Below are positions 5,072 through 55,659 of a DNA stretch of 64,000 bases, piece by piece. The first letter of the stretch is position 1, and every line of letters begins with the position of its first letter. Made by a program: the position numbers and the translations under genes. Under the pieces are notes generated by a model, which was not told the DNA's origin, made no database searches, and saw only the letters and a list, made by a program, of their open reading frames with translations. Where the stretch lies: positions 279,806,001-279,870,000 of the forward strand of contig OZ024742.1 in assembly GCA_964016885.1 (NCBI GenBank), written 5' to 3'. Origin of the DNA: Eledone cirrhosa. Its lineage: Eukaryota.

Positions 5072-5076
<5 letters not shown>

Positions 5077-16648: not shown

Positions 16649-16993
<345 letters not shown>

Positions 16994-23472: not shown

Positions 23473-23810
23473 TGGCCTCCCACCAGATTTTTAGAAAATT
23501 AAATAAAAATCGGTTCATCGAATCATGTATGTAGAAAAACCGATTAGCAACCAGCAAAAATCCCAAACCAAGGAGCAGTCAGCCTAACCGAGCATGAAGG
23601 GCACAACACATTTCAAAAATACATATTAAACAAACATGCAAGAACGTGAAAGGAAAAAGCAAATGTAATAAAATGTAAATACAATTTCCTAAAAGTTCCA
23701 ATAGTCACTACAGGATTAATGCACCGCACAATAGCAGTTTAAAAATATACCGTGCTACACAGTTTTTTTGGCCAATGAACCCTCCGACAGGAACGGGTCG
23801 TAGTCTTATA

Positions 23811-26800: not shown

Positions 26801-26864
26801 GGCGGTTCTGTTGTGTCTCGCAGAGTTCCCTTGCCGCTTTTAGTGACTCTGATCTACATTTCCC
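23811..26864 (-). pseudogene. pol: Pol (protease, RT, RNase H, integrase) broken by frameshifts and stops
   Basis: LVDTGA; MPFGLRNA; YIDD; VDASDTAVGAVL; RELLAI; DHKPL; HHCC; [10 protein letters not shown]; HPASNGMVERFHRQLK; GPY. Confidence 0.9.
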
Positions 26865-27628
26865 GAAGCTGAATATTTACATGGAGGCCGGCAATGTTTT
26901 GCCTTATCCGCGAAGGTGGTATGATACCAGCAAAATAATGGATTGCTGGCGGACGAAGTAGTATGCTGACGTGGAGTCGCGAAAGAACGCGAACGACTCC
27001 TAGGCCGCCGGGAATACGGCCTATTCTCCCTGCATAACCGAGCGCCTTGCTGCGTCAAAGCGTCAATAGCCTTCAACATGGCAACCTCGCGTGTCGAGAC
27101 GGGCTGGTTCAAATGAGAGGAAGCAATACGCGAGTCCGAGGCGGTAGACTTTTTTGAAAATTCCACGATTCGATCCGTGGAGGCAGCAATTTTCTCCAAA
27201 GAGCTGGTGTCCACTATATTTGCCAAAATAATTTGGACGTTGTTTGGCAGGCGAGAGAAACATACTTGTTTAATAAAGGAATTATCCTGTTCAGGCGATT
27301 CACTGAGGTCCCTAATGTGGCGCAAATATTCTGACGCCGACCTATTGCCTAGACACTCATCCTCCAACAATGAACGAAATCTGCTCTCAGCAGAACGACT
27401 GTTCCTTCGAAGAATTTCTTCCCGCAACGAATCATAAGAAATACTGGCCGACGGGTTCGTAATCAAATCTTTCACTGTTATAGCGAGTGAAGAAGGAAAA
27501 CCACTTATCAAAAAGTTGAGCTTTTTCTCGGTTTTTACTTCGTTGGCAGCAAAATAAGCGTCTAGCTGCGCAAACCAGAGCTTAGTATCGCCTGAGAACG
27601 CAACCAAACCAGGACCACTCATCGTCAA
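26840..27628 (-). CDS. gag: Gag (CHCC nucleocapsid motif)
   Basis: [10 protein letters not shown]...; [19 protein letters not shown] = C-X2-H-X9-C-X3-C. Confidence 0.85.
26858..26864 (-). promoter_or_regulatory. Candidate -1 ribosomal frameshift heptamer G GGA AAT
   Basis: In correct phase in gag (TCG GGA AAT); the -1 frame stays open into the protease ([27 protein letters not shown]...LVDTGA). Confidence 0.65.
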
Positions 27629-28028
27629 TCTATTACCGCATGGACGAATAAAAGTAACTAATGTTCAAAACGACGGGAAAACAGCACAATTTTCCCTAAA
27701 TATCCATAAAGTTACCGCAAGCAAAAGAAATTCAGTCACAGTACAAGAAATAGCAGCGAAAGTCCTAAAGGTGGAATTTCTGGAACAAGATAGCCATCAT
27801 CAAACAAGATGGCGGCGCATTTCTTTTCCAAAACAAGAATATGGTCGCGTGACGAGGCTAAGCCAATCAGATGGCTGCATTTGAAGAAGAAAGACAATGT
27901 GCGGGAATGTTAGATGGCCAGTCAGCCATTTTTGAAAAAATATATTTTTTCCTTTTTATTTTCTGTAAGACGAACAATTTTCAATTTAAAACGAATGGTG
28001 AAAGTAAGCAGGCTGCGTTTTCATATTT

Positions 28029-28046
28029 AATCGTCGAAGGTCACCA
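28029..28046 (-). promoter_or_regulatory. Primer-binding site, tRNA-Trp-like
   Basis: TGGTGACCTTCGACG one base after the 5' LTR; resembles the complement of the tRNA-Trp 3' end (TGGTGACCCCGACG). Confidence 0.7.
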
Positions 28047-28047
28047 A

Positions 28048-28430
28048 TTTAGGCGGGGTGGTTGTCGTCAGTCATCCCGTCTAATTGGTTATCGTTTACT
28101 GGCACATAGTGAAACAAGGAAGAAGGAACATAACTCAATTGTATGTTATAAAAACATTTTTAACCAGCGCAATTACAGAATATATACAAATAAATTAGTG
28201 CTCCTAGGTTGGGATATATTTAAGTCGTCATATACTGCCGCATGGTGTGATGTCATCCTTTGGATCACTGCATGTAGATAGAACAATAGAGATAGCACGT
28301 CTATATTTCCCGAGGAGATCATCGTTTAATAAATATTGTTTCAGCTACTGACGTCAGAACGTGACGTCAGAACTAAGGGCAGTTAATCGACTGCCTTCAC
28401 AGTCGATGCTAGATGGCGTGATCTTCTACA
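28048..28430 (-). repeat. 5' LTR
   Basis: Direct repeat of 23111-23472 with substitutions and a ~17-bp indel near 28242-28258. Confidence 0.9.
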
Positions 28431-31267: not shown

Positions 31268-31310
<43 letters not shown>

Positions 31311-31316
<6 letters not shown>

Positions 31317-31760
31317 ATTAAATAAATGGAAACTATATTTATAAAACCATATGTATTTCATTATATATATTTCAGGGATATCATATTAACAATATGCTAT
31401 GCCTTCCTCAGACAAAATACAATATAAACAGTTTTATAGATAAATAGATTTGACATACCGTAACAACATCGACTTGTATTTGAAAAGTTGAATTGGCATT
31501 CAAATACAAGTCGATGTTGTTACGGTATGTCAAATCTATTTATCTATAAAACTGTTTATATTGTATTTTGTCTGAGGAAGGCATAGCATATTGTTAATAT
31601 GATATCCCTGAAATATATATAATGAAATAAATATGGTTTTATAAATATAGTTTCCATTTATTTAATATTGTAAATATACTCCAAATATTTGTCGAGTGCT
31701 TTTATATCAGTTATAAATATTTACTAGTTGTAACCCAACAATTTAAATATAACTTTCTAT
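31311..31760 (+). mobile_element. Fold-back PLE-type insertion (family F)
   Basis: Arms 31311-31484 and 31499-31672, tail to about 31760, in (TA)n. Confidence 0.8.
31564..31629 (+). ncRNA. Type I hammerhead ribozyme (family F)
   Basis: TATTTTGT-CTGAGGA-AGG...CCT-GAAA-TATATA-TA-ATGAAATA; mirror copy on the minus strand at about 31354-31419. Confidence 0.7.
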
Positions 31761-32102: not shown

Positions 32103-32465
32103 TAGATATATAGATATATGTATGTATGTATCTTTGTAAAAGGTAAACAGAAATAACAACACAATCGGTACTGTATATGGAAGGGATATATTAGGTTAAT
32201 GCTTGATATAGCAGGAAGAGGGTCTCAACGCCTCGGACGCTACTCCTTCATCAGAAGAAACAAGCAGAAATAAGAGAGTTTGAGGGGACGGAAAAAAAAG
32301 TCGTTAGATAAAAATAACAGGTCCATTCATGTTACATCCCTTGCAAAACTGTTTGTAGTGACGTTTTGTGTATGATTTTTTTTTTAGAAAAGTGGATGAT
32401 CGAGCGTGTCTACCTGAAATGGAAAAAAAAAACGTTTCATATGTATGTATGTGTATATATATATA

Positions 32466-32897
32466 TCAAGTAAGAATATTTTCGAAACAGCGAGCGAGTT
32501 TGAAATTATAAATGTAAGCTACCGCCGTATTTTGACTAAAGAAATTAAAGAAAATTTTTTAGCCTGATAGTGGGGTTAAGAACCCTCGGAGAAATGGAAA
32601 AAGATGAGTATTGATGTACATGGGAGTCGAACCCACATCTTTGGTTATTCTGACCACTGTGCTACCATTACACCAACACATCAAATTAGAAGCTATAATC
32701 TTAGCAACTGTAAATGTCAAGTAAGAATATTTTCGAAACAGCAACCTAGTTTGAAATTATGAATGTAAGCTATCGTTGTATTTTGACTAAAGAAATTAAA
32801 GAAAATTATTTAGCCTGATAGTTCTTAACCCCACTATCAGGCTAAATAATTTTCTTTAATTTCTTTAGTCGAAAAACGGCGATAGTTTACATTTATA

Positions 32898-32899
<2 letters not shown>
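32466..32899 (-). mobile_element. tRNA-containing 251-bp unit in partial tandem plus inverted arm, in (TA)n
   Basis: 32466-32571 is repeated at 32717-32822 (offset 251); 32821-32899 is the inverted copy of about 32505-32583. Confidence 0.7.
32611..32683 (-). pseudogene. tRNA-like sequence (SINE-type head with Pol III A and B boxes)
   Basis: TGATGTG TT GGTGTAATGGTAGCAC A GTGGT CAGAATA ACCAA AGAT GTGGG TTCGACT CCCAT G TACATCA A; T5 run shortly downstream; imperfect cloverleaf. Confidence 0.65.
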
Positions 32900-32988
<89 letters not shown>

Positions 32989-32993
<5 letters not shown>

Positions 32994-33315
32994 TAAAAGG
33001 AAAAGAAATTGCTGACAAATTTTTCACAGTGAAAAATAGTTTAATTAGGAATAAGTAAAAATTAGTATTGGTTAGTATTCAGTTTTGGTTTCAAGTTTTT
33101 ACCGGTTAGATAGAGCGCCCGTGATGTTTGCTCTGAGAGCAAACATCACGGGCGCTCTATATAAAAATTATTTTTGAAAAGCATTAGAAATGCGCAACCG
33201 GTAAAAAATTGAAACCAAAACTGAATACTAACCAATACTATTACTAATTTTTACTTATTCCTAATTAAACTATTTTTCACTGGGAAAAATTTGTCAGCAT
33301 TTTCTTTTCCTTTTA

Positions 33316-33320
<5 letters not shown>
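32989..33320 (+). mobile_element. Family D palindromic insertion
   Basis: Fold centre at 33135. The right-arm HHR (33171-33206) has GAAA>GCAA; the left arm lacks the HHR core. Confidence 0.75.
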
Positions 33321-33377
<57 letters not shown>

Positions 33378-34063
33378 ATTGTATGCTTGCACGTCCGTAT
33401 GGATCTATGAGTGTGTGTGGTGAACGTTGTTAGACAAAAGAAGAACGTTGTCACAAAAGTAGAATGATCGAAAATGTGAGGCTCCCGTGATGTTATAGTC
33501 CAACTTGATAGCTATCAGTAAAAAACCGTCATAATGTGCAGAGAACAGAATGAAGTAACGATGTTAGACCTGAAACTTCCATCGGAGACGTACATCAATG
33601 ATACGTTTGAGTTAGAAGCCTGAAAACTGAGATATCAACGGATAGGTGGCATCATAATTTCTTGTAGAGATTTGTATCAGGTTATTTGTTGGAACAAGAT
33701 TGAGTCGCTACCCAGGATTTTGATTAACCGTAAAGGTAATAAACCAACATTCGCGAAAATTATCTGAGCCTGCTAGGTATGCATTTCAGCATCTAGCTCA
33801 AGAGAGAAGAATTGTGCGTCTAGTACCAAGATAAGCACACAATGCGCATTTCTTCTATCACCAGTTTGAGGAGCAGATTGGTAATGGAGTCGGGTCCATA
33901 ACTCCTATGGGGGTTCTTGAGCCAATCCTCTGCAAAACGCGCGTAACAAGTCATACAAAATAACTATCGAATACATGCAAACGAAACTTCCTCATATTTT
34001 CTCTCTCTCTCGAAACACACAAACAATTGTTCTCTGAATGGTGATCTATCTGTTGTGTTACCA

Positions 34064-34109
<46 letters not shown>

Positions 34110-34125
34110 TATCACAAAATCGAAT

Positions 34126-34215
34126 TTCATCTGAGGATACCGTTCTCATAACAACAACAAATGCATGAATTACATCTTGATGGCATGAGCGAACCATTGA
34201 AATAATTATAATGAA
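34126..34215 (+). ncRNA. Type I hammerhead ribozyme in a PLE-type fragment (34107-34260)
   Basis: TTCAT-CTGAGGA-[GTTC TCAT...ATGA gc GAAC]-GAAA-TAATTA-TA-ATGAA; duplicated on the minus strand at 42781-42870. Confidence 0.7.
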
Positions 34216-34264
34216 TAAACGATTTTTGTAACATCAGCATCTTTATTAATGTTATTAATATATA

Positions 34265-34287
34265 TAGATAGATAGACAGATAGATAT

Positions 34288-34382
<95 letters not shown>

Positions 34383-34515
34383 TGTTTCTTTTATTTGCCA
34401 CTAGGGCATCAAAAGTGGGACAAGTACAAAGGGGGAGTTTACACAAAAAGGCGTCCTCAATAAGGAGGAGGCAATAACAAAATATAAAAATAAAATAAGA
34501 TATAACAATAGATAG

Positions 34516-34546
<31 letters not shown>

Positions 34547-34563
34547 GATAGATAGATAGATAT

Positions 34564-34594
<31 letters not shown>

Positions 34595-35106
34595 TGTTTC
34601 TTTTATTTGCCACTAGGGCATCAAAAGTGGGACAAGTACAAAGGGGGGAGTTTACACAAAAAGGCGTCCTCAATAAGGAGGAGGCAATAACAAAATATAA
34701 AAATAAAATGAGATATAACAAAAAATAAAATTTTTAACAAAATCCTCAATAGAGAGGAGGCGCCTTGGGGGGTCGCACACACCCCCGAAAAAAGTGTGCA
34801 ACCCTTCTCCTCAGGAGCACAGAGAAGGGGTGCTCCCTTGGTCTTTCATCTTCCTCACCTATAGTCTGATGTAGAGTGAAGGCCCATTCACACGGGCCAT
34901 TCTCGCCACTTTCACCCATCTTTCATAGAAACGGCTGGGGTGCAGCACCTCTCTCTCCATCCTGATCCTTCTTCCGAAATGATATCGGAAGAAACGGACC
35001 AGTTGTTGGCCAGAGAGAAAAGTGCCCGACCCCAGTCCTTTCAGACGCGTCCACCATACAACCTCTTTCGCCATGGCTATTACGCACAGAAACACCGCCT
35101 CTGCTT
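34265..35106 (-). mobile_element. Two stacked 5'-truncated copies of the LINE 3' end (about 510 and 125 bp), each followed by (TATC)n
   Basis: 34595-35106 and 34383-34508 repeat the ORF2 end/3' UTR; GATA arrays at 34265-34382 and 34508-34594. Confidence 0.85.
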
Positions 35107-35382
35107 GATAGATAGATATATTTCTTTTATTTGCCACTAGGGCATCAAAAGTGGGACAAGTACAAAGGGGGGAGTTTACACAAAAAGGCGTCCTCAATAA
35201 GGAGAAGGCAATAACAAAATATAAAAATAAAATAAGATATAACAAAAAATAAAATTTTTAACAAAATCCTCAATAGAGAGGAGGCGCCTTGGGGGGTCGC
35301 ACACACCCCCGAAAAAAGTGTGCAACCCTTCTCCTCAGGAGCACAGAGAAGGGGTGCTCCCTTGGTCTTTCATCTTCCTCAC

Positions 35383-38300
35383 CTATAGTCTGATGTAGAG
35401 TGAAGGCCCATTCACACGGGCCATTCTCGCCACTTTCACCCATCTTTCATAGAAACGGCTGGGGTGCAGCACCTCTCTCTCCATCCTGATCCTTCTTCCG
35501 AAATGATATCGGAAGAAACGGACCAGTTGTTGGCCAGAGAGAAAGGTGCCCGACCTCAGTCCTTTCAGACGCGTCCACCATACAACCTCTTTCGCCATGG
35601 CTATTACGCACAGAAACACCGCCTCTGCTTCATCTTTGAAGGGGGGAGGCGGCTTGATCATTACAATAGACTCGGTGGTCAACCGGATCGGTCCCACCCT
35701 TGACAGCAGTTGTTCGACATAGCCCCACAGATCGGCTACGCCCGAGCAGTGTACTAATGCGTGTGCAACGGTTTCCTCGTCGCACACGCATCTGGGACAG
35801 ATCTTTTTGGCGGGGTCCCTACCCGGGCGCCCGTGTCTGTAGAGCCTTTCTCGAACGGGTAAAGCCCCTCGGTAGCACTGCCAGGCCAGGGACTTCTGGA
35901 AGTTGTCCATAGGTCCCGGGCTAAATGTCCTACCGAAAAGGCTGGCCAGTTCGTCCTCCTCCATGTCTAGGGCTTCTCCGAGGGCGTCGTCGCACCTGCT
36001 GCGTACCAGCCCTCTATAGAATGTTGCGGTGGAGTCTCCACTGATAACCGGATCCGCCTGCCAGAGGGCGGTGAGCGCCTGGGCACACTCAGTGTGCCAG
36101 GCGCCCAGTTTTCTCGGTCTTTGCTTGACCCAGGATTGCAGCTCGGTGAGTGAGACGAGTCTGGGAAAGGTTCGTCTCACAAACGAGGCCCACACCGGTT
36201 GTCCGGTGAGGAATACGTAGAGGTGCCGTAGCCTTAATGCGTGTTTACGCATCATTAGCCACGGCATCCCCAGCCCTCCTTTCGAAGGGTGTTGACAGCA
36301 GATGGATCTCCTCACCATAGGAGCCCGCCTCTTCCAAAGGAATTGGAAGAGCGCGCGCTCCATCTTGGTGAGGGTTTCCCTTGGGCAGGGCACTACGGTC
36401 AGGCGGTAGTAGATGACGGACGCTATGTAGGTGTTCGCCACCTCCGCCCGACCTTTCAGGGATAGTTTGCAACTGGCCCACTTCTGGGTCAGTGCAAACA
36501 CTCTGTTCGTAACCTCCGCCCAGTTTTTCTCCACCTGGAGGTCCGGTCCGAACCAGACCCCGAGCAACTTCACCGGGCCCTCCGTCCAGCGTCCGACGAC
36601 GCTATCGGAGGGCATCGGTCTGCCCCTCCACGTGCCGAGTTGCAAACCGATCGACTTGTCCCGGTTCAGCTTAGCCCCTGTGAACTTTTCGTACTCCTCC
36701 AGTAAGGTGCCGACCGCCTCGATTTCGGAGGCCGTCGACACCATTACTGTCACGTCATCGGCGTAGGCCGACACCGCTTTCCGCAATCCCGGTTCCAAAG
36801 GGATGCCCTGCAACAACTCCAACTTCCGCAGTAGTGGCTCGAGAGTCAATACATACAGAAGGGAGGAGAGAGGGCACCCTTGTCGGATGGACCGCGCGAT
36901 TTTGAACGGCTCCGAGAGGTAGCCGTTCACCTTGACCCTAGAGCAGATGCGGCTGCTGTGCATAGCAGTGATCCAGCCCCTGAAAACGGGTCCGAAGCCT
37001 GCCGCCGCTAGCACCGCATCCAGGTAACCATGGTCGACCCTATCGAACGCCTTAGATTGATCCAAGTTGATCAGAGCCCCACCAAAGCCGGGTTCGTTCC
37101 CAACCCTCTCTATGATGTATCGCATGAGGTGGAGGTTGTCATGGATGGACCTGGACGGGATAGCGCATGTCTGCGCATCTCCCACCAGGTTGCCCACGAC
37201 AAGCGCCAACCTCTTTGCTAGCACCTTGGCCAAAATCTGTAACTCTGTATTTAGCAGTGTTATGGGCCTGAAGTTACTTATTTCGTCCCCCTTGTTCTCG
37301 TCCTTCCTCACTAGCGTGACTACGCCCTTGGTCACAGTACAGGGAATTCTCCCGTTCTGTTGCCAGTTGCAGTAGACCGCCTCGAGGAGATCGGGGAACA
37401 AGTCCGGCATAGCTAGATATAATTCGTAAGGAAGACCATCGAGACCCGGGGATTTGCGTTTGCCGCATTGGCTCAGCACGTCCTCTATCTCAGCGGCCGA
37501 AATCGGCTCCTCGCAGGACTTCGCCTCCCTGTCCGAGAGGCGCGGCAGGCCGTCGAGGTATGGACCGAAGTCCACGTTCCCAACCGGCTCCCCGCCCCTC
37601 CCGAACAGTCGGGCAAAGTGCCTTTGAAAGGCCTCACACATCTGCTTAGGCTCAAGAATCGCCCGTCCATCCAGGTCTCGCAAAGACCGGATGGTGGATT
37701 TAGTTCCACTGTTGGCCTCTGTCACGCGGGCCCAGCTAACAGCTTTGGTCCCCTCGTTCCCTAGAGCACGTATTTTACTTCGGACAACGCAGCCTTCGTG
37801 CTTCGCGTCGAAAAACTGGCTCAAAGCCGTTCTCGACGCTAGCACTCTGGCCACGTCGCCGCTTCTAATTGCCTCTTCTACTCTATCTATTAGCTCCCTT
37901 TCCTTCCTATTCCTATCCGCAGCTAGAACCTTACTAAATTCTATCGAGACTACTCTAATCTCTCTCTTTAGAGATACCCACCACCTGCTGTTGACGATCG
38001 CTCCAGTCAACCGTTCCTTAACTAACGTACTAATCCGATTCCTGTAGGCTCTACTTGCCGGCAAGGACAAGTTGAGCTTCCAGTAACCGGGGCCCTGTCT
38101 ATGAGTTCTGTCAAGGTTGACCATGCAGGTCACTAATTTGTGGTCTGAATAGCCAACAATGCGCATTTTTGGACAACTTAAAAATTCCTTATCCTTAATT
38201 CTAACTAAGAACCTATCTAGGTACGACCTAGATGATCCGCTACGATTTGCCCAAGTCCAGGTTGGCGCAGTCGGAAAATCTAGTCGATATCTATCGGCCA

Positions 38301-38820
38301 GGTCAAATCGACCGATTAACCCTTTGAGGCTATTACACCCCTCTCTATCGGGGCAGGCCCCTACGTAGTCCCAACGTGCATCTAGGATACCATTCCAGTC
38401 CCCCACTAATAGCAAGGAGCGGGACGTCCCTAGAAAAGTCTCCAGACGATGGAAGAAGTCCGGCCGCATTGACCCGAAAGGGCCGTAGGCGGCTACCAAC
38501 CTAAACGCTCCGCCTTTACCACTGCCAAGGTCCAGAACCACTAGTCGACCCTCCGGGTCCAAATGTACCATCTGTGTTGCGAGACCCAGATGTTTTTGCA
38601 GCAGAACGACAACTCCACCCCCACCTCCAGGCTGACAGAGAGATGCGTGCATCTCAAAGTCATCAAAGGTGGGGGCCAGCTGTCGCACGTTGCTGATCCG
38701 GGCCTCGCAAATAACCATCACATCTATACGTTGTGACCTGAGGTCATTTAGAAGCATTGCTTGCTTCCAAGTTGAGCCCAGGCCACGCGCATTTAAACAG
38801 CCTACTCTTAGCATAGCCAT
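35383..38820 (-). CDS. LINE ORF2 protein: APE endonuclease + reverse transcriptase + CCHC
   Basis: CLNARGL, GDWN, SYLDRFLV, SDH; KSPGLDG, FRPITLLN, LDQSKAFDRV, QGCPLS, YADD; CPRC..ETVAHALVHC; first ATG at 38820. Confidence 0.95.
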   Translation of the reverse strand: MAMLRVGCLNARGLGSTWKQAMLLNDLRSQRIDVMVICEARISNVRQLAPTFDDFEMHASLCQPGGGGGVVVLLQKHLGLATQMVHLDPEGRLVVLDLGSGKGGAFRLVAAYGPFGSMRPDFFHRLETFLGTSRSLLLVGDWNGILDARWDYVGACPDREGCNSLKGLIGRFDLADRYRLDFPTAPTWTWANRSGSSRSYLDRFLVRIKDKEFLSCPKMRIVGYSDHKLVTCMVNLDRTHRQGPGYWKLNLSLPASRAYRNRISTLVKERLTGAIVNSRWWVSLKREIRVVSIEFSKVLAADRNRKERELIDRVEEAIRSGDVARVLASRTALSQFFDAKHEGCVVRSKIRALGNEGTKAVSWARVTEANSGTKSTIRSLRDLDGRAILEPKQMCEAFQRHFARLFGRGGEPVGNVDFGPYLDGLPRLSDREAKSCEEPISAAEIEDVLSQCGKRKSPGLDGLPYELYLAMPDLFPDLLEAVYCNWQQNGRIPCTVTKGVVTLVRKDENKGDEISNFRPITLLNTELQILAKVLAKRLALVVGNLVGDAQTCAIPSRSIHDNLHLMRYIIERVGNEPGFGGALINLDQSKAFDRVDHGYLDAVLAAAGFGPVFRGWITAMHSSRICSRVKVNGYLSEPFKIARSIRQGCPLSSLLYVLTLEPLLRKLELLQGIPLEPGLRKAVSAYADDVTVMVSTASEIEAVGTLLEEYEKFTGAKLNRDKSIGLQLGTWRGRPMPSDSVVGRWTEGPVKLLGVWFGPDLQVEKNWAEVTNRVFALTQKWASCKLSLKGRAEVANTYIASVIYYRLTVVPCPRETLTKMERALFQFLWKRRAPMVRRSICCQHPSKGGLGMPWLMMRKHALRLRHLYVFLTGQPVWASFVRRTFPRLVSLTELQSWVKQRPRKLGAWHTECAQALTALWQADPVISGDSTATFYRGLVRSRCDDALGEALDMEEDELASLFGRTFSPGPMDNFQKSLAWQCYRGALPVRERLYRHGRPGRDPAKKICPRCVCDEETVAHALVHCSGVADLWGYVEQLLSRVGPIRLTTESIVMIKPPPPFKDEAEAVFLCVIAMAKEVVWWTRLKGLRSGTFLSGQQLVRFFRYHFGRRIRMEREVLHPSRFYERWVKVARMARVNGPSLYIRL

Positions 38821-38844
38821 GTTGGTGGTGAAGAGAAAAGGCAC

Positions 38845-40626
38845 TTACCTCTCTGCGTCCCGGGTATCGGGCTGCACAATTTCCATTAGGGTGGGGGATG
38901 GGTTGTTGGGTGGGGTGGTGGTTTGTGGAAGTGTGGGGGCATCAGTGTGTTGTGTGGTTGGGGAGCTTGGAGTTGTGAGGGTGTTTGGGGAGGGGGTGGG
39001 ATAGTTTTTTAGGAGGACTCGGTTAATGGGCCCGACGCAGGGGGGACCCACGTCCTCTTTAAAATTGTTTTTTAAAGTTTTATAGGTGTCCTGTGGGGCC
39101 TTAATCATTTTGAGGTGGGGGAAATCCCCTGCCTGGGTGAAGTTAGGCCCTTGTGTTTTTATTAGATTGTTGTTGTACACAATGTTTAACAGTTTTTTGT
39201 TTCTTGTATTTATGTATGTGTATGCATGTTTTTGTTTTTGTGTGGTGTTTTTTGTTTGCTGTTGTGAGCTCTTTTGTGTTGGTGTCAGTGTTATGTTTTG
39301 GGGAGGGGTTTTTTTCATTTGTGTGTCTGAGGTGTGTTTTCTTTTTTTTCTTTTGATTGTGTGGAAGTGCTCCTCCTCGTCTGACGACGAACTAGGGTCA
39401 TCTTCCGCGTTGGAGGGGAGGGGTATATTTTCGGGTTGTGTTTGCGGTACGGGTGTTTTGGAAATTGTTTTTGTTTTTTGAGTGGAGGGGATGGGTTGGA
39501 CATTGTTTTGTTTTGGTTTGAGCTGTGGTGGTTGTTTTTGTAGTGGTTGTTGTGGTGATTGTGTTGGTTGTGCAGTTGTTGGTGGTGTAGGCAGGATTGG
39601 GGTTTTCTTATTAAGTTGGGGACAGACAGCCCTCAGGTGACCTCTGGTTCCGCAGAGGTAACACGAGGGCCGTCTACCCTCAACGGTAATGTTGATGAAG
39701 GTTAGATCATCCAGTATGACGCGTTCAGGGATCTGGGCGATCCTTTCGGGCCTCATTTGAACTACAAGTTCGAGGCTCGTTCCACTGAACGCGTCACCCG
39801 ATGCCTTTCCCATGGACACCAGCATGTCATCCTCCAGGTCCAGAAAACCTGTCAAAACCCACCATATGTCCATAATCGGCAGGATGGTGTGGATTTTTAT
39901 TTTTTGTGTTCTTCTACCCATGTACGTAGGGTAGAAGGTGTATGCGGTGGATGTGATTGGTTTGATGGACAGTTTCACTGCTGTGTCCCTGTCCTTCATG
40001 AGAATGGATAGACTCCCGTAGAGTCTATCCTTCTGAATGAAGGTGATGTCCTTCATGACGTCTTTTAAAACCAGCTCTATCTCGCTCTGTGATGGTTGAG
40101 CTGGTTTTTTACTTTTGTTCGAGATTGTCCTAAACATGACCGTGTTTAGGAGTCTCTGGCTTTTTAGTTCCGGGGGGGAATGGATTGTGAATGAACCATT
40201 TTCCCCGTACACTATATATTTTTTCGCATCCGCCAGTAGCTCCTTCGCTTTTGTTATATCTACTGGCAGATAGTCGAGGGTTTTCCTTGTCGTCTCGGCG
40301 AAGGAGAAATTTTGTTTGTTTGTGTTGTTGTTGTCGTTGGTGGTGTTGTTGTTATCATTGTTGTTGTTGTCACCGTTATTGGTCTTGTTGTTGTTATTGT
40401 TATTGTTATTGGTGTTGTTTTCTACCGTCGCATTGTTGTTGTTGTTGCTGTTGGTTCTTTGGGTTGTTGCCATGGTAACGTCAAGTTGTCGGTTAACAGG
40501 TGGAGAGAATTCTTCCTCTGACTGACCTATCTTCTTGACCTCTGCTACTGTGACAGTGGCAGGGGGGAGCTGTAAGTTCATCTTCCCCTTTCCTCCTTCG
40601 AATTTTGGTGAAGAAGCTTCGGCCAT
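38845..40626 (-). CDS. LINE ORF1 protein (CCHC zinc knuckle)
   Basis: 593 aa uninterrupted; VEGRRPSCYLCGTRGHLRAVCP; Asn-rich N-terminus and Pro/Thr/Gln-rich C-terminus. Confidence 0.9.
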   Translation of the reverse strand: MAEASSPKFEGGKGKMNLQLPPATVTVAEVKKIGQSEEEFSPPVNRQLDVTMATTQRTNSNNNNNATVENNTNNNNNNNNKTNNGDNNNNDNNNTTNDNNNTNKQNFSFAETTRKTLDYLPVDITKAKELLADAKKYIVYGENGSFTIHSPPELKSQRLLNTVMFRTISNKSKKPAQPSQSEIELVLKDVMKDITFIQKDRLYGSLSILMKDRDTAVKLSIKPITSTAYTFYPTYMGRRTQKIKIHTILPIMDIWWVLTGFLDLEDDMLVSMGKASGDAFSGTSLELVVQMRPERIAQIPERVILDDLTFINITVEGRRPSCYLCGTRGHLRAVCPQLNKKTPILPTPPTTAQPTQSPQQPLQKQPPQLKPKQNNVQPIPSTQKTKTISKTPVPQTQPENIPLPSNAEDDPSSSSDEEEHFHTIKRKKRKHTSDTQMKKTPPQNITLTPTQKSSQQQTKNTTQKQKHAYTYINTRNKKLLNIVYNNNLIKTQGPNFTQAGDFPHLKMIKAPQDTYKTLKNNFKEDVGPPCVGPINRVLLKNYPTPSPNTLTTPSSPTTQHTDAPTLPQTTTPPNNPSPTLMEIVQPDTRDAER

Positions 40627-40829
40627 TTAAAAAAATATTGACTTTTCAACAAGAAAAAACTTTTTTTAACTATTTCGCCTAAAGGCGTAGAATATTTTGA
40701 GAGACTGACCAGATCAAAGTTTGACCTGGCAGTCCCTCTACAAAATGGTACAAAAATTAAAGTTATCAGACAAGAATTTCTATAGAAATTTAAACAGAAC
40801 TTACTCAGCAAGTTATACGCGTGTGTCCA

Positions 40830-42401
40830 TCCCAGACTCGTCTCACTCACCGAGCTGCAATCCTGGGTCAAGCAAAGACCGAGAAAACTGGGCGCCTGGC
40901 ACACTGAGTGTGCCCAGGCGCTCACCGCCCTCTGGCAGGCGGATCCGGTTATCAGTGGAGACTCCACCGCAACATTCTATAGAGGGCTGGTACGCAGCAG
41001 GTGCGACGACGCCCTTGGAGAAGCCCTAGACATGGAGGAGGACGAACTGGCCAGCCTGTTCGGTAGAACATTCAGCCCGGGACCTATGGACAACTTCCAG
41101 AAGTCCCTGGCCTGGCAGTGCTACCGAGGGGCTTTACCCGTTCGAGAAAGGCTCTACAGACACGGGCGCCCGGGTAGGGACCCCGCCAAAAAGATCTGTC
41201 CCAGATGCGTGTGCGACGAGGAAACCGTTGCACACGCATTAGTACACTGCTCGGGCGTAGCCGATCTGTGGGGCTATGTCGAACAACTGCTGTCAAGGGT
41301 GGGACCGATCCGGTTGACCACCGAGTCTATTGTAATGATCAAGCCGCCTCCCCCCTTCAAAGATGAAGCAGAGGCGGTGTTTCTGTGCGTAATAGCCATG
41401 GCGAAAGAGGTTGTATGGTGGACGCGTCTGAAAGGACTGAGGTCGGGCACCTTTCTCTCTGGCCAACAACTGGTCCGTTTCTTCCGATATCATTTCGGAA
41501 GAAGGATCAGGATGGAGAGAGAGGTGCTGCACCCCAGCCGTTTCTATGAAAGATGGGTGAAAGTGGCGAGAATGGCCCGTGTGAATGGGCCTTCACTCTA
41601 CATCAGACTATAGGTGAGGAAGATGAAAGACCAAGGGAGCACCCCTTCTCTGTGCTCCTGAGGAGAAGGGTTGCACACTTTTTTCGGGGGTGTGTGCGAC
41701 CCCCCAAGGCGCCTCCTCTCTATTGAGGATTTTGTTAAAAATTTTATTTTTTGTTATATCTTATTTTATTTTTATATTTTGTTATTGCCTTCTCCTTATT
41801 GAGGACGCCTTTTTGTGTAAACTCCCCCCTTTGTACTTGTCCCACTTTTGATGCCCTAGTGGCAAATAAAAGAAATATATCTATCTATCAAGCAGAGGCG
41901 GTGTTTCTGTGCGTAATAGCCATGGCGAAAGAGGTTGTATGGTGGACGCGTCTGAAAGGACTGGGGTCGGGCACTTTTCTCTCTGGCCAACAACTGGTCC
42001 GTTTCTTCCGATATCATTTCGGAAGAAGGATCAGGATGGAGAGAGAGGTGCTGCACCCCAGCCGTTTCTATGAAAGATGGGTGAAAGTGGCGAGAATGGC
42101 CCGTGTGAATGGGCCTTCACTCTACATCAGACTATAGGTGAGGAAGATGAAAGACCAAGGGAGCACCCCTTCTCTGTGCTCCTGAGGAGAAGGGTTGCAC
42201 ACTTTTTTCGGGGGTGTGTGCGACCCCCCAAGGCGCCTCCTCTCTATTGAGGATTTTGTTAAAAATTTTATTTTTTGTTATATCTCATTTTATTTTTATA
42301 TTTTGTTATTGCCTCCTCCTTATTGAGGACGCCTTTTTGTGTAAACTCCCCCCTTTGTACTTGTCCCACTTTTGATGCCCTAGTGGCAAATAAAAGAAAC
42401 A

Positions 42402-42432
<31 letters not shown>

Positions 42433-42449
42433 ATATCTATCTATCTATC

Positions 42450-42480
<31 letters not shown>

Positions 42481-42613
42481 CTATCTATTGTTATATCTTA
42501 TTTTATTTTTATATTTTGTTATTGCCTCCTCCTTATTGAGGACGCCTTTTTGTGTAAACTCCCCCTTTGTACTTGTCCCACTTTTGATGCCCTAGTGGCA
42601 AATAAAAGAAACA

Positions 42614-42708
<95 letters not shown>

Positions 42709-42886
42709 ATATCTATCTGTCTATCTATCTATATATATTAATAACATTAATAAAGATGCTGATGTTACAAAAATCGTTTATTCATTATAATTATTTCAAT
42801 GGTTCGCTCATGCCATCAAGATGTAATTCATGCATTTGTTGTTGTTATGAGAACGGTATCCTCAGATGAAATTCGATTTTGTGATA

Positions 42887-42932
<46 letters not shown>

Positions 42933-42967
42933 TGGTAACACAACAGATAGATCACCATTCAGAGAAC
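40830..42967 (+). repeat. Right arm of inverted duplication (LINE 3' end, stacked copies, flanking DNA)
   Basis: Includes ORF2 tail 41032..41613, identical (TATC)n variant patterns and non-LINE flank 42732-42967. Confidence 0.95.
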
Positions 42968-42978
42968 GTGAATATATA

Positions 42979-43063
<85 letters not shown>

Positions 43064-43070
<7 letters not shown>

Positions 43071-43650
43071 TAGCGAAGCAAGCGGTTATTAAACAATTTT
43101 CTAAATAAATTAAAAAATGATTAAATAATCACCTGTTCAGACGCTGTACATTGTACCTGTTGAAGTATCCATCCACTTCTATAATTATTCTCCTTATGTA
43201 GAGAACAAAACGTTGAATAATGCTGCTAATTTTAGTGGCAATTCGACATGTTAATAATATCCAGCTTTTATCAGCGAACTGATTATGCGTGTGTGCCATT
43301 TTAACGGCTTGACCGCATGCGTTGGGCCGGGACCATAAAATTTACTTGCTATAAGGCTTGATACCTTATGGCGTGGGAATAGGACTGTCTGAAGATTCAT
43401 TTCTTTCCATTGGAAATTCGTTGGATTTTCAATCTTTCGGAATGATGAAACCGTCGGTAACAGCGTCTGAACAGGTGATTATTTAATCATTTTTTAATTT
43501 ATTTAGAAAATTGTTTAATAACCGCTTGCTTCGCTACTTTTATATTGTTCTGGTATCTCGAATTAGTGTCATTGAACCACATGTATTATAAACAACTTGA
43601 ATATTTCTACAAGTACATTGTACCTGTTGAAGTATCCATCCACTTCTATA
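43064..43650 (+). mobile_element. Non-coding HHR element: inverted arm + 467-bp unit with 38-bp terminal direct repeat
   Basis: 43064-43147 is the reverse complement of 43460-43543; 43146-43183 is identical to 43613-43650; in (TA)n. Confidence 0.8.
43385..43463 (+). ncRNA. Type I hammerhead ribozyme
   Basis: CTGT-CTGAAGA-tTCATT...AATGAt-GAAA-CCGTCGG-TA-ACAG; predicted GUA cleavage after 43459. Confidence 0.8.
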
Positions 43651-43818
43651 TATATATATATATATATATACATAGCCAGTGGGATGGCGTCATCTTATGG
43701 TTAAAACAGCACGAAGAAAAGGGCCTCATTACCCTGCGCGTCAATCGGGCCACTCCACGACGGCGGAGTGCAACCCGAGCGACGAGAGGCTGCTAAGAAT
43801 CACAGGGTCCTACTCGTT

Positions 43819-43850
<32 letters not shown>

Positions 43851-43853
<3 letters not shown>

Positions 43854-43998
43854 CGAAGGAAATGTGGTAAGGAACCAGGTGGACCATAACGCACCAAAGT
43901 ACTCAATACTTGAGGTAGTAGAGTGGGTAATAGGAACCAGTAAGACCCCGACAGCTGAGCGGCTTGAGCTCAGCTGTCGGGGTCTTACTGGTTCCTAT
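43851..43998 (-). mobile_element. Family A fold-back fragment
   Basis: Tail and HHR 3' side on the minus strand (43851-43960), inverted arm 43960-43998; a further 17-bp piece at 43805-43821. Confidence 0.75.
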
Positions 43999-44059
43999 AT
44001 ATATATATATATATATGCCTACCTATATATATATATATGCCTATCTATTTATATAAATA

Positions 44060-44147
<88 letters not shown>

Positions 44148-44244
44148 GGAATACTGTTGGCTTTTTGCTACAATACTTTCTATACCTTTCATTTATATAT
44201 ATATATATTTATATAAATAGGTAGGCATATATATATAGGTAGGC

Positions 44245-44324
<80 letters not shown>

Positions 44325-44340
44325 GCATATATATATATAG

Positions 44341-45047
44341 GTATTTCGATGATTAGTATGCTATAAATGTGCAATTAAAGTGTACTCGAGATGTAAGGTT
44401 ATCAGCTTGTCTCGTGACTCCGTCAGTGTGAGGAAACTTTCTCCAGACTGATCGTTACCAGTTGAATTTTCGAATATATATATATATATATATGCAAAAG
44501 TTCTATTTAAATTGTTGGGATACAACAAGCAAATATTTTTAAACTGATATAAAGCACTCAACAAGTATTTGGAGTAAACATAGGATATTAACAAATGGAA
44601 ACTGTATTTATAAAACCATATTTATTTTATTATACATATTTCAAGGACACGACGTTAAATTATGGTGTGCTTTCATCAGACAAAATACAATATAGATCAG
44701 TTTTATAAATAAATATTGACATACCCTTCCGGACAACACATATATATGTATTTATACTTATGTATATCTATCATCGTATTTTGTCCTAACTCCCTTATGG
44801 TTGAGTAAAAGTCAGGCTGAAGTAATCTGTTTCCTATGGCAACAGTTACTCGCCAATATTCTACTCTTTACTACCCTTTTGAAGACGGTAACACCACGTG
44901 ATAATTTTACCTTTCGAAAATTTAACTTGGTAGCGATCAATCTGGAGAACGTGTCCTCACACTGACAGAGTCACGAGACAAACTGAAAACCTTGCATCTG
45001 GAGTACACTTTAATTGCACATTGACAGCATACTAATCATCGAAATGC
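44341..45047. repeat. Diverged ~135-bp inverted repeat (44341-44474 / 44913-45047) enclosing a family F copy
   Basis: ATTTCGATGATTAGTATGCT...TTTTCGAA is mirrored as TTCGAAAA...AGCATACTAATCATCGAAAT. Confidence 0.7.
44492..44726 (-). mobile_element. Family F single-arm copy with HHR (about 44623-44687)
   Basis: Homologous to 31525-31760; CTGATGA...GAAA on the minus strand; TTGAGTGC at 44554-44561. Confidence 0.7.
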
Positions 45048-45436
45048 CGCAGTCGGACCTTTGATGAAAAGTTAGGTATATTTTTGTCTATTTTCGCTTA
45101 GCACTTATTATAAACAAACACATACACCACACACACACGCGCACATATTTATGTACATATACGTGTGTGCGTGTGTATATATGTGTATATATAAATGGTG
45201 CACTTTTAGGCTACGGCCAGCCACACGAACGTGTAACATAACCTGAATAAGCAATGCCTGTGCTTTGAGGGTTTTTTAAGTGGGGAAAGGCTTTGCACTC
45301 GACTAATCCCACTCTCTGAGCATCACAACACTACCCGAAAAGGAGAACTGGTCAACATCATCAGATGCTTCCGAATTTGCAGAATAGTGTTTTCATAGCA
45401 ATTGGGGGCCCGTTCACTCCCAGGTGAAAAAAAAAG

Positions 45437-46065: not shown

Positions 46066-46901
46066 TAATCATACGTGGATAAATTTTATTTAAACGAGAT
46101 GATGAGATATATGTAATGAAATGTTGGAGCAAGACTGAATCCATATATAAGATAACCTACGAAAACAGAACTAAACTGAAAATATATATATGTGTGTGTC
46201 TGTGTATCTGAATATCATTGAATACTTATATATATGAATAAGAACTTCTTTCTCCCTCTTTTTTGCGATATTAATTTACACTCTCACGCACACCTACATA
46301 CTCTCACTACAGGAATGAGCTTCCACACACATACTGTGGGTGTGAGTTTATATGCATATCTGTATTAATGCTTATCATATATAGGATTTCTACGAAAATA
46401 TACACAACATTTTATTTATACATATATATATTGGTATATCACTTTCTTATCCTTTTATCAATCTCTCTCTCGCTCTCGTTTTCTATATATATATATGACC
46501 ACTCCACATAAATACCACAATTTAAGAATGACCTGTAGTATCGAATTTCATACTAATAACCTCAATTGAATATATATCTGACCAGGAATGCTTTTTCTGA
46601 AAATCAGTCTTATGGAACTATTGTCATCTTGCCTGACGGTTTGAACTTTACAACACCACCTGCCTCTTTGAGGCCAAATACCAACCCTACTAGCATCTAC
46701 AAAGGGACCAATGAGAATTAAGACTATTCCTGCTGACAACAGTAAATTATTCCTAACAAGCTCATATGTCCCAAGGCTCTGATACCATCAACACTATAAA
46801 CACAGAGCTGGCATATCTAAGAACTAACTAACTGCCTGTTGAGGTTATAGCCATTCAATGGCTATCATCGAAATATATATGTATATATGAATGTATGTAT
46901 A

Positions 46902-47496
<595 letters not shown>

Positions 47497-48830: not shown

Positions 48831-49378
48831 CATATATTATCTATATGTATGTACGTATAGATGTATATATGTATATATATTTGTGTGGGAATGTGTGTTT
48901 GTGAAATAACAATTTCTGTGAGACCATTTAAATGCATTAGTTCTTCAGCTCTATCCAATTTATTAACATGTCTGGGATTCTATCAATTCCAATCTATATC
49001 ATCATCATGTAAATTGCACCTCGCAAGCGCATGTATAGAAGTTGTCCTTTTTTACTCACTTTTGTTCTGTTTTCAATTAATCATCGTTGCATAACTGTCA
49101 TTTTCTGAAATAAATAACCATTCTTTTTTTAACCAGCTAGCGATAAATATATATATTAGTGGAGGATATGCGGGCAAGTGTTTAGTGCGGTCAGCTCAGG
49201 AACATAATAGAGTTGTAGTTTCGATTCACACACATGCACACGAGGAAACACACACACACGCGCGCGCGCGCGCTTACACATACACACGCACGCATACGCA
49301 CACACACATGCATACAGGCACGCACGCACACACACACATACATATACACACATATATATATATATATATACATACATA

Positions 49379-49800
49379 TATCAATGATATTAATACATGG
49401 AAACTATATTTATGAAACCATATATATTCTATTATATATATTTCAAGGGTACCAAAACTTTGGTAAGCTCTCATCAGATAAAATACAAAGTTTGTTTTAT
49501 AAATATTGACATATCCAGGAAGGAGATCTTAAGGGTTCAAGTTTTTGCTGAACCCTTAAGATCTCCTTCCTGGATATATCAATATTTATAAAACAAACTT
49601 TGTATTTTATCTGATGAGAGCTTACCAAAGTATTGGTACCCTTGAAATATATGTAATAGAATAAATATGGTTATATAAATATAGTTTCCATCTATTAATA
49701 TCATTGATATTATACTCCAGAAAACTTGTAGAGTGCTTCGAATCAGTTATAAATATATATATTTGTTGAATTACCAACAAATTAAATATCCCTTTTGCTT
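49379..49800 (+). mobile_element. Family F fold-back insertion with two HHRs
   Basis: Arms about 49379-49538 / 49549-49711. Minus HHR at 49425-49485: TATTTTAT-CTGATGA...GAAA-TATATA-TA-ATAGAATA; plus HHR at about 49603-49663. Confidence 0.8.
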
Positions 49801-55655: not shown

Positions 55656-55659
55656 ACAA

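Follow-up and report, generated by a model that had tools for sequence, protein, structure and literature searches.

A 64,000-nucleotide window of the Eledone cirrhosa assembly (GCA_964016885.1, contig OZ024742.1) contains a Tx1-like LINE whose 5' end is fused to an inverted copy of its own 3' end and of the tail and flanking DNA beyond it. In the reading we prefer, to which we give about an even chance, the mirror arm was made at the DNA level while the LINE inserted, by fold-back of the cDNA-extended chromosome end, and was later altered by a short conversion patch. The product is an inverted duplication without a dedicated function.

Structure of the inverted duplication

Self-BLAST of the window aligns 34029-36166 with 42967-40830 over 2138 bp at 99.81% identity, with four mismatches and no gaps, and the match ends abruptly at both edges of the repeat (Table 1). 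Within the arm, 1048 bp of the LINE 3' end are followed by the tail, by two further 5'-truncated copies stacked with (GATA)n tracts, and lastly by 231 bp of flank that is not LINE, made up of 37 bp of unique sequence, the (TA)20 tract and 153 bp. The preliminary description had reported such an inverted copy joined to the LINE 5' end at 40829/40830, with no net indel and the same microsatellite patterns in both arms, and the alignment bears this out: all four tracts compared, namely three microsatellites and the short (GATA)3 tail, match letter for letter. The flank, put at about 235 bp, is present, whereas the hammerhead (HHR) ascribed to it is a degenerate motif only.

Table 1. Coordinates of the features within the 64,000-nucleotide window
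Feature	Position	Strand	Basis
Left arm, runs on unbroken into LINE body	34029..36166	+	self-BLAST and arm alignment
u1, 37-bp non-LINE segment	34029..34065	.	
(TA)20 tract, same in both arms	34066..34106	.	
u2, 153 bp, with degenerate minimal hammerhead-like motif directed into the composite, core at 34131	34107..34259	+	
(TATC)n tail/target tract of copy 3	34260..34382	-	
Stacked copy 3, 125-bp 5'-truncated LINE 3' end	34383..34507	-	
(TATC)n tail/target tract of copy 2	34508..34594	-	
Stacked copy 2, about 510-bp 5'-truncated LINE 3' end	34595..35106	-	
(TATC)3 tail of main LINE	35107..35118	-	
Main LINE, Tx1-like, about 5.7 kb, 203-nt 5' UTR, apparent 5' end	35119..40829	-	
ORF2, 1145 aa: AP endonuclease, RT and zf-RVT, without stop or frameshift	35383..38820	-	
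Single-copy spacer between arms, 4663 bp, the LINE 5' part	36167..40829	-	
ORF1, 593 aa, one CX2CX4HX4C knuckle; like zf-CCHC/RRM/ZCCHC3-type RNA-binding clusters	38845..40626	-	
Inner junction J1, LINE 5' end fused to inverted arm	40829..40830	.	
Right arm, sense-strand copy of LINE 3' 1048 bp, tail, copies 2 and 3, (TATC)n tracts, u2, (TA)20 and u1	40830..42967	+	
Patch, 58 bp, containing all 4 arm mismatches	41016..41073 (mirror 35923-35980)	+	arm alignment
Outer junction J2, arm end, then 19-nt variant TA/TG stretch, then (TA)47	42967..42968	.	

All four mismatches are synonymous third-position changes in ORF2 (chance probability about 0.003-0.007). They are packed close to the inner junction: the right arm opens with 186 bp identical to its mirror, followed by the 58-bp patch with every change (P = 0.04 if the changes were spread over 244 bp), and outside these first 244 bp lie 1894 bp without any difference, (TA)20, (GATA)~22 and (GATA)~31 tracts included. 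This clustering and the synonymous nature of the changes are new over the preliminary description. Near-perfect identity combined with such a patch implies that the arm is either very young or homogenised, with the patch coming from a sibling LINE copy.

Misassembly was among the causes put forward in the preliminary description. An assembly or consensus artefact, in which a chimeric fold-back read or a repeat collapse made or homogenised the right arm, would account for the long difference-free stretch, and the cluster of lineage-type variants near a unique junction may be a trace of short-read mis-mapping during polishing. Such tandem and inverted structures trouble assemblies, according to the accessible part of PMC8557442. 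We nevertheless rate this origin as unlikely. Two joins exact to the base would have to fall in non-repeated sequence, one at the apparent 5' end of the LINE shortly before ORF1, and a 4.66-kb spacer would be required as well; the window is free of N, its long ORFs are free of frameshifts, and natural fold-backs with diverged arms are common in it (eight of the ten measured have 5-19 mismatches, one has 1 and one has 0). Real junctions at both J1 and J2 would make the duplication itself real and limit the doubt to the identity of the arms and the orientation of the spacer.

The LINE and its siblings

By its domain content, the element appears to be a two-ORF, Tx1-like LINE. ORF2 carries the Pfam domains of an L1/Tx1-type ORF2 (Exo_endo_phos, RVT_1 and zf-RVT), matches human L1 ORF2 chains at E about 3e-48 as against 1e-14 to 3e-19 for R2 chains, and has its closest named relative in Argonauta hians (62%). 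A Tx1-type ORF1 combines an RNA-binding domain with a CCHC zinc knuckle. The ORF1 found here fits this type, having the CX2CX4HX4C knuckle and a likeness to RNA-binding proteins: its atlas neighbours are zf-CCHC/RRM/ZCCHC3-type (0.89-0.92), and its Pfam zf-CCHC match is weak (E = 0.051, below cut-off). The LINE had been called intact, which is shown for the two uninterrupted ORFs only; the 203-nt 5' UTR is shorter than the 272-325 nt of four distant relatives (41% identical), so that 40829 is a putative 5' end.

Preference for a target sequence, be it a microsatellite or a multicopy sequence, is a feature of the Tx1 clade. At this locus the main LINE stands first in a head-to-tail stack of its own 3' ends within (TATC)n. 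The (TATC)n repeat is found at the 3' end of all three local copies and at the 5' junction of two of them, at one locus in which tail and target are inseparable. Copy 2 differs from the main LINE at 6 of 527 aligned positions (1.1%) and is likely an independent insertion. Both truncated siblings have (TATC)n at the 5' junction and the main LINE has none, from which we conclude that its 5' junction was resolved abnormally. No further copy of u1 was found in the window outside the mirror arm.

The distant relatives stack head-to-tail, and among 49 copies there is neither an inverted ORF2 copy nor a head-to-head pair; at that distance, the arm is therefore no family trait. The four-gamete test, applied to 17 near-identical relative copies, fails for 31 of 190 site pairs, so that sequence exchange between copies does occur in this group. 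Variant sites in the relatives show no significant clustering (13 of 20 within 60 nt, P = 0.16), and short conversion patches are thus not demonstrated there.

Junctions

J1 precedes the ORF1 ATG by 203 nt and interrupts neither ORF. The reverse complement of the element's own cDNA strand is fused here to the cDNA 3' end, as in a snap-back product. No microhomology is visible at J1 outside the arm, and any homology would be hidden inside the first bases of the arm; the last 15 nt of the cDNA pair at 36166 no better than elsewhere (rank about 338 of 1335 windows). At J2 the exact microhomology is 0 nt, and the partner is weakly similar to the continuation of the template (a common 7-nt TG run, global score -1). 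A search for a target-site duplication between the 50 nt before 34029 and the 50 nt after 42967 found none (longest common stretch 4 nt).

Proposed fold-back at insertion

The preliminary description offered three causes, one of them DNA-level fold-back repair at insertion, which we find to be the best fit and for which R2 snap-back and foldback of the L1 primary reverse-transcription end are published precedents. The starting point is observed: the family's copies have (TATC)n at their ends, with two truncated siblings downstream of the main LINE. The main LINE would have been reverse-transcribed from a nick in a short (GATA)3 up to the RNA 5' end at 40829. Its cDNA 3' end, not joined to the upstream target end, would then have primed on its own strand at 36166; alternatively, the end may have been replicated and fused to a shorter sister end, giving the same product. 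Synthesis would have run back through 1048 nt of LINE, past the insertion point and into about 1090 nt of tail and flank, after which the arm end would have been joined to the reciprocal end, at the TA-rich tract at 42968, with loss of the (TATC)n expected 5' of the LINE. A short tract in one arm may finally have been overwritten by a sibling LINE, through gene conversion or through mis-mapping of polishing reads, to give the four synonymous differences. The scheme assumes native continuity of 34028/34029.

Several observations favour fold-back. Over 1894 bp the arm passes unchanged and ungapped from LINE into flank, through two older insertions and three microsatellites, which is what copying of local DNA would give. 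The position of J1 spares both ORFs, and the main LINE, unlike its truncated siblings, has no (TATC)n at the 5' junction. R2 and L1 offer precedents, the distant relatives show no inverted copies, and sequence exchange occurs in the group. Against fold-back stand the lack of visible microhomology at J1, the second event that the synonymous differences call for, the absence of significant clustering among the variant sites of the relatives, and a LINE 5' end that is full-length only putatively.

The four differences might instead reflect two templates, the start of the right arm deriving from a different sibling LINE, either as a truncated cDNA on the sister end fused head-to-head with the full-length cDNA, or as an independent 5'-truncated head-to-head copy that later had its distal part replaced with left-arm sequence, through one-sided strand invasion extending into the flank. 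Four changes in the first 244 bp fit family-level divergence (P = 0.30 at the 1.1% that separates copy 2 from the main LINE). The lack of visible microhomology at J1 agrees with a blunt template jump or end-joining, neither of which requires any, and extension of two ends on different mRNAs is described for L1 (10.1101/2024.12.14.628481, accessible part). A wholly independent copy, however, should show about 9 differences in the last 807 LINE bases, a stretch without any (P about 1e-4); the two arms agree in tail length and in the junction to copy 2, the changes are packed behind 186 identical bases, and none of the 49 relative copies is head-to-head. We hold a two-template origin to be rather unlikely.

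A later replication template-switch after normal LINE insertion, with two switches of the microhomology-mediated BIR type, would leave an identical end product. Among 1,019 humans, germline inversions not due to mobile-element insertion belong most often to the inverted-duplication class, with 277 events of median 284 bp and mostly 1-15 bp of microhomology, according to the available text of PMC12350158. The region is dense in hairpin-prone TA tracts and palindromes, and the weak likeness at J2 points the same way. Neither the placement of J1 within the roughly 200-nt 5' UTR end nor the loss of the expected 5' (TATC)n is explained by such switches, and the junctions show 0 nt of exact microhomology at J2 and none visible at J1. 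This course of events appears distinctly improbable.

Comparison with known systems

Published systems are compared here through the accessible parts of the sources cited. In R2, the cDNA 3' end can prime synthesis complementary to the cDNA, especially after full-length cDNA, and snap-back copied the cDNA or, less often, nearby rDNA (PMC11371274; PMC11331408). The likeness lies in the cDNA 3' end acquiring the reverse complement of the element's own cDNA ahead of upstream junction formation. Those events concern engineered R2 (PRINT insertions) in the rDNA of cultured human cells, whereas here an APE-type LINE in an assembled genome has a 4.66-kb loop and a copy that continues about 1.09 kb past the LINE 3' end into tail and flank.

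L1 foldbacks arise on the primary reverse-transcription end, with the insertion inside the fold-back junction and in one case with a full-length L1 there, and local inverted duplications also occur at L1 insertion sites (10.1101/2024.12.14.628481; PMC10191854). The local duplications differ in lying on the reciprocal (5'-flank) end, and those in PMC10191854 measure 52-220 bp; the foldbacks on the primary end accompany translocations or triplications in somatic or cancer cells, whereas the E. cirrhosa structure closed locally after 2.1 kb. As for target choice, the Tx1 elements Kibi in (TC)n, Koshi in (TTC)n and their crocodilian counterparts in (TTCC)n/(TTTC)n are likewise two-ORF APE-RT LINEs in pyrimidine-rich microsatellites (PMC4494074); the repeat here is (TATC)n, and a preference for it is putative, drawn from three copies at one locus.

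Twin priming inverts the upstream part of the RNA. L1 twin-priming resembles the present case in placing inverted LINE sequence on the 5' side of the insertion, and differs in that the 3' part and genomic flank are duplicated here. The earlier statement that ordinary twin priming cannot yield the structure therefore stands: the inverted segment is a second copy of the 3' end together with about 1.09 kb of tail and flank.

Resemblance to Penelope-like elements

Fold-backs of the type seen in Penelope-like elements (PLEs) are numerous in the window, which also has a decayed GIY-YIG-like ORF. The structure at 34029-42967 had been described as mimicking the PLE fold-back plan, and in geometry it does, since an inverted 5'-truncated copy of the 3' end adjoins the 5' end. 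The (TA)n surroundings and a hammerhead-like motif in the repeat also recall the inverted pLTR of PLEs (PMC8557442, PMC11167929). The 37 bp of u1, a segment with no second copy in the window outside the mirror arm, fall within the 30-40 bp of a PLE tail extension, for which u1 is at most a candidate. In other respects the structure differs: the repeat is mostly LINE and older insertions, the motif is reversed and degenerate, and no PLE RT or GIY-YIG ORF was found in 34029-42967, which encodes APE-RT and ORF1 only.

From its sequence, u2 is likely a remnant of a PLE terminal repeat. It aligns marginally to the HHR arms of the window (53 against shuffle maxima of 50-51 for two arms, 47 against 57 for the third). 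Its motif has the core letters, a 5-bp stem I and a palindromic stem III, with 0 pairs of stem II next to the core; 0 of 5000 shuffles match the descriptor, which was written after the motif was seen. The motif was found neither by Rfam (no hammerhead family among 46 matches) nor by a model built from five window hammerheads. The two copies, at 34131 (+) and 42865 (-), point inward, whereas the hammerheads at 31411/31572 and 49477/49611 (fold-backs 31305-31678 and 49378-49710) point outward to the arm ends, as do, weakly, those of fold-back 68-2081 (E 0.06 and 0.31). In a LINE read-through RNA the motif is antisense and lies in the 3' part. The overlap with TA at the arm end is 0 nt, as against 2-7 nt in 11 of 12 other fold-backs of the window, a hand-picked set.

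These features bear on another of the causes first offered, PLE-style double priming of a read-through transcript. On this view a Penelope-like RT/GIY-YIG enzyme, acting in trans, would have copied one RNA that covered LINE, stack and hammerhead-bearing flank; the resulting 8.9-kb unit would have been inserted beside (TA)n, with a 5'-truncated copy of its 3' end in inverted orientation. The geometry and the length of u1 fit, one arm end lies 19 nt from (TA)47, PLE-type fold-backs and the decayed ORF are at hand, and PLEs are able to move host genes in trans (PMC8557442, accessible part). The inward, antisense motif, the missing TA overlap and a unit without PLE protein speak against it, as does the (TA)20 tract, which would be a natural priming site inside the arm, yet the arm crosses it without stopping. 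We consider this route very improbable. That a Penelope-like enzyme mobilised the complete LINE, its siblings and the hammerhead-bearing flank as cargo into (TA)n, leaving PLE geometry, seems very unlikely; if true, it would mean that one retroelement class carried along an intact, autonomous member of a different one. The resemblance to PLEs is confined to geometry, and a PLE-like outline is not proof of PLE chemistry.

Significance

The structure is likely a rare by-product already described for related retrotransposons, not a new kind of element, and one locus resting on an assembly opens no new element class. If real, it would be a natural case, in an assembled genome, of fold-back on a cDNA-extended LINE end that was resolved locally and left more than 1 kb of 3' tail and flank as an inverted duplicate, an outcome otherwise known, in the accessible parts of the sources, from L1 events in somatic or cancer cells and from engineered R2 insertions. 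Predicted consequences are flipping of the spacer between the arms and, if the region is transcribed through, hairpin RNA. Fold-back would thus be a route by which target-specific LINEs can build kilobase inverted repeats, with flippable spacers and hairpin RNA against their own family as predicted outcomes.

Inverted duplication

The 2138-bp inverted duplication reported in the preliminary description was recovered by self-BLAST as a gap-free match with four mismatches, which stops sharply at both ends and encloses a 4663-bp spacer. The microsatellites had also been called identical between the arms, and all four microsatellite or tail tracts compared are the same. Downstream of the LINE, the order is a (TATC)3 tail, a ~510-bp truncated copy (copy 2), (TATC)n, a 125-bp copy (copy 3), (TATC)n, the 153-bp segment u2, (TA)20, and the 37-bp segment u1, and the arm passes the LINE/flank boundary without a seam. 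Judged by their sequence, copies 2 and 3 are likely separate insertions, because 6 of 527 aligned positions in copy 2 do not match the main LINE and copy 3 has a deletion of its own, and likely older than the duplication, because they are unchanged in both arms. Each truncated sibling is preceded by (TATC)n at its 5' junction; at the main LINE, the mirror arm stands in its place. No target-site duplication (TSD) was seen at the composite.

The joint at 34028/34029 is taken as native by assumption: the window holds no other copy of the left flank or of u1, and none of the 18 ORFs of at least 35 aa examined there was informative. Given the symmetry of arms and spacer, a spacer flip would swap which arm is native.

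Features of the composite and its surroundings in the window
Feature	Position	Strand	Remarks
LINE	35119-40829	minus
ORF1	40626-38845	minus	593 aa, one CCHC knuckle
ORF2	38820-35383	minus	1145 aa; AP-endonuclease, RT, zf-RVT domains
Left arm	34029-36166		matches 42967-40830
Right arm	40830-42967
u1	34029-34065		non-LINE; mirrored in right arm
u2	34107-34259		mirrored in right arm
Asymmetric fold-back	68-2081
Asymmetric fold-back	5072-5448
Asymmetric fold-back	8557-8752
Asymmetric fold-back	10959-13264
Asymmetric fold-back	16786-16914
Asymmetric fold-back	31305-31678
Asymmetric fold-back	32756-32899
Asymmetric fold-back	43062-43545
Asymmetric fold-back	43928-43999
Asymmetric fold-back	44340-45048
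Asymmetric fold-back	46882-47344
Asymmetric fold-back	49378-49710
Likely decayed Penelope-like element	14500-16623
Decayed Ty3/gypsy-type LTR retrotransposon	23111-28430	minus
tRNA-like match	32612-32682
Minisatellite	52893-55661		36-bp unit, 77 copies

LINE classification

Neither ORF contains a stop or a frameshift. By its sequence, the element classifies as an ordinary L1/Tx1-type LINE: human L1 ORF2 chains match its ORF2 far better than R2 chains do, and among named relatives an Argonauta hians protein ranks first at 62% identity, which makes an octopod host likely. No close family member emerged from the protein search, in which the 8000 best-sharing candidates were scored and the best reached 69% over 80% of the query. 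A repeat annotation of Octopus vulgaris includes 13 recently active L1-Tx1 families and 30 Penelope families (PMC13282606), and microsatellite-preferring Tx1 families are on record (PMC4494074). The 5' UTR measures 203 nt against 272–325 nt in relatives (n = 4 loci), so the window LINE may be less than full length.

Elsewhere in the window, the Ty3/gypsy-type element has LTRs that are 88–90% identical and broken frames with gag-like DUF7041, protease, RT, and RNase H. The minisatellite lies in a 1002-codon Thr/Ala-rich, mucin-like open frame, whose MgtE_N Pfam match is likely a low-complexity artefact. The tRNA-like sequence (45.4 bits), possibly a tRNA-derived SINE head, sits between 105-bp direct repeats and adjoins a fold-back.

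Origin of the arm mismatches

All four arm mismatches fall within 58 bp, 186–243 bp from the inner junction (J1, 40829/40830), and each changes a third codon position of ORF2 synonymously, a pattern absent from the preliminary description. Four random sites would fall inside 58 of 2138 bp with P = 7.5e-5; synonymous changes make up 24% of those possible in this stretch, and four of four would be synonymous by chance with P of about 0.003–0.007. The other 1894 bp of the arms show no difference (95% upper bound 0.16%). Because they are clustered and all synonymous against the 24% expected, the mismatches are likely variants from another member of an active LINE family and not post-duplication decay; post-duplication point mutation was rejected as their source on the same grounds. 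One arm is a mosaic, and telling left from right takes a family consensus.

A wholly independent second copy was rejected: such a copy should show about nine differences over the final 807 bases of the LINE, where there are none (P about 1e-4). A right arm of two-template or head-to-head origin ranks next after the fold-back account given below, and we regard it as unlikely.

An assembly artefact comes just behind and is likewise unlikely. A collapse would leave 1894 identical bases across three long microsatellites, but so would a young event. Against an artefact stand the two precise joins in unique sequence, one of them at the apparent 5' end of the LINE, the 4.66-kb spacer, the clean ORFs, and the absence of any N; moreover, natural fold-backs are numerous nearby, and eight of the ten measured carry 5–19 arm mismatches.

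Proposed fold-back mechanism

The simplest account, to which we give roughly an even chance, is a DNA-level fold-back of the cDNA-extended end. Either the cDNA 3' end would have served as a primer on its own strand at 36166, or replication of the extended end would have been followed by fusion with a shorter sister end. Copying would then have proceeded over 1048 nt of LINE and about 1090 nt of tail and flank, before the new end was linked to the TA-rich reciprocal end at 42968; conversion or polishing may have introduced a short patch from a sibling. In working, this resembles the snap-back junctions of R2 insertions, described as arising especially after full-length cDNA (PMC11371274, PMC11331408), or the foldbacks on the primary RT end of L1, one with a full-length L1 (10.1101/2024.12.14.628481); for L1, local inverted duplications on the reciprocal end are also described (10.1101/2024.12.14.628481, PMC10191854). 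Counting against a fold-back, microhomology is visible neither at J1 (pairing rank about 338 of 1335) nor at the outer junction J2 (42967/42968), and no TSD accompanies them. A later template switch is a still less likely origin of the arm.

Our search of an open-access library, covering text and figure legends, yielded the analogues cited here but no locally closed inverted duplication of a LINE 3' end and 3' flank in an assembled genome; such a structure may already be on record. The composite is one locus and a candidate rearrangement.

Distant relatives

A search of genome contigs, for which the window ORF2 was aligned with 15 homologues, gave 47 loci, 41 of which (L001–L039, L043, L047; 40–43% identity) lie on 16 contigs (CAXXMW01 contigs 2–14 and 16–18) of one MAG labelled 'uncultured Arenicella sp.'; these contigs are evidently mis-binned eukaryotic DNA. 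They carry full-length two-ORF Tx1-like LINEs in unidirectional head-to-tail arrays with a period mostly of 6.4–6.85 kb, and the 377 kb contain 49 distinct ORF2 3' ends, eight sequence groups, no minus-strand ORF2 match, and, at the junctions viewed, no microsatellite tail. An inverted self-match occurs in one of the 47 loci (72 bp, 76%). Since these relatives are arranged head-to-tail without minus-strand ORF2, stacking is a habit of this LINE group and the inverted arm, at 40–43% identity distance, is not. The arrays are reminiscent of telomeric or self-targeting retrotransposon arrays, for which a literature search returned only a review of telomeric retrotransposons.

The four-gamete test, applied to 17 near-identical relative copies, gave 31 incompatible site pairs out of 190, which shows exchange between copies. 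Variant clustering as support for conversion patches was not significant in any of three relative groups (P = 0.25, 0.16, and 0.54, the second being the 17-copy group). A more distant relative (L040:3036-10137; 26% ORF2 identity) has a U1 snRNA match on either side (157.9 and 93.6 bits) and is possibly a U1-associated Tx1 element.

Hammerhead-like motif

The flank had been described as including a hammerhead ribozyme, and the parts that stand are in u2: the core CTGAGGA at 34131 (plus strand; mirror at 42865, minus), GAAA, a palindromic stem III, and a 5-bp stem I. Stem II has no pairs adjoining the core, and the strict hammerhead descriptor missed u2. A relaxed descriptor, written post hoc, found eight window sites including u2; neither 100 block-shuffled windows nor 5000 shuffles of u2 gave any. 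Rfam at E<=10 gave 46 matches in 32400-44500 with no hammerhead among them, and at gathering thresholds its one match in the 64 kb is the tRNA-like one. With a covariance model built from five hammerheads of the window, 17 matches were obtained at E<=1, and neither 34131 nor 42865 was among them. Because the hammerhead-like core at 43389 escaped it as well, this model is insensitive to long stem II variants. Alignments of u2 to other window hammerhead arms are marginal (53 against shuffle maxima of 50 and 51; 47 against 57; 36 against 44). The motif is best called a degenerate remnant, likely derived from a PLE terminal repeat, and its self-cleavage is predicted to be weak or absent.

Comparison with Penelope-like elements

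Penelope-like elements (PLEs) are described as often carrying an inverted 5'-truncated copy at the 5' end, with a 30–40 bp tail and a (TA)n preference (PMC8557442), and a PLE protein is reported to extend both target strands in vitro (PMC11167929). The claimed mimicry of this fold-back plan holds in outline: u1 measures 37 bp, and 19 nt separate the arm end from (TA)47. It does not hold in detail. The PLE-like fold-backs of the window end in a 2–7 nt TA overlap in 11 of 12 hand-picked cases, whereas the composite has 0 nt, with GTGAAT joined first; hammerheads point outward in the window PLE arms (31411/31572, 49477/49611, and weakly 119-194/1955-2030) but the motif points inward in the composite, whose arm continues through (TA)20 and 37 bp further and which encodes no PLE protein. 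On TA overlap and motif direction the composite fails this internal PLE standard. The rearrangement is not a PLE, and PLE-type copying is very unlikely to have produced it. Passages of a retrozyme preprint (10.64898/2026.07.22.740005) mention neither inverted arms nor cephalopods.

The immediate right neighbour of the composite (43062-43650) is a fold-back with 81 of 81 arm bases identical and with the hammerhead-like core at 43389; beside (TA)n it has a direct repeat of 34 bp (43146-43179/43613-43646) that resembles a PLE tail. The likely decayed PLE comprises frameshifted ORF fragments with a GIY-YIG-like end near 16.1–16.4 kb (atlas 0.95; GIY-YIG on 16% of one cluster; no Pfam match), then a segment 83% identical to the fold-back arm 33119-33318, then (TA)80.

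At least 12 asymmetric fold-backs occur in the 64 kb. One arm adjoins (TA)n and ends at an internal TA overlap, the other continues into the element, and several carry minimal outward-pointing hammerheads. They are probably non-autonomous derivatives of PLEs, very densely packed here, in which TA-primed inverted termini are clearly recorded in nature.
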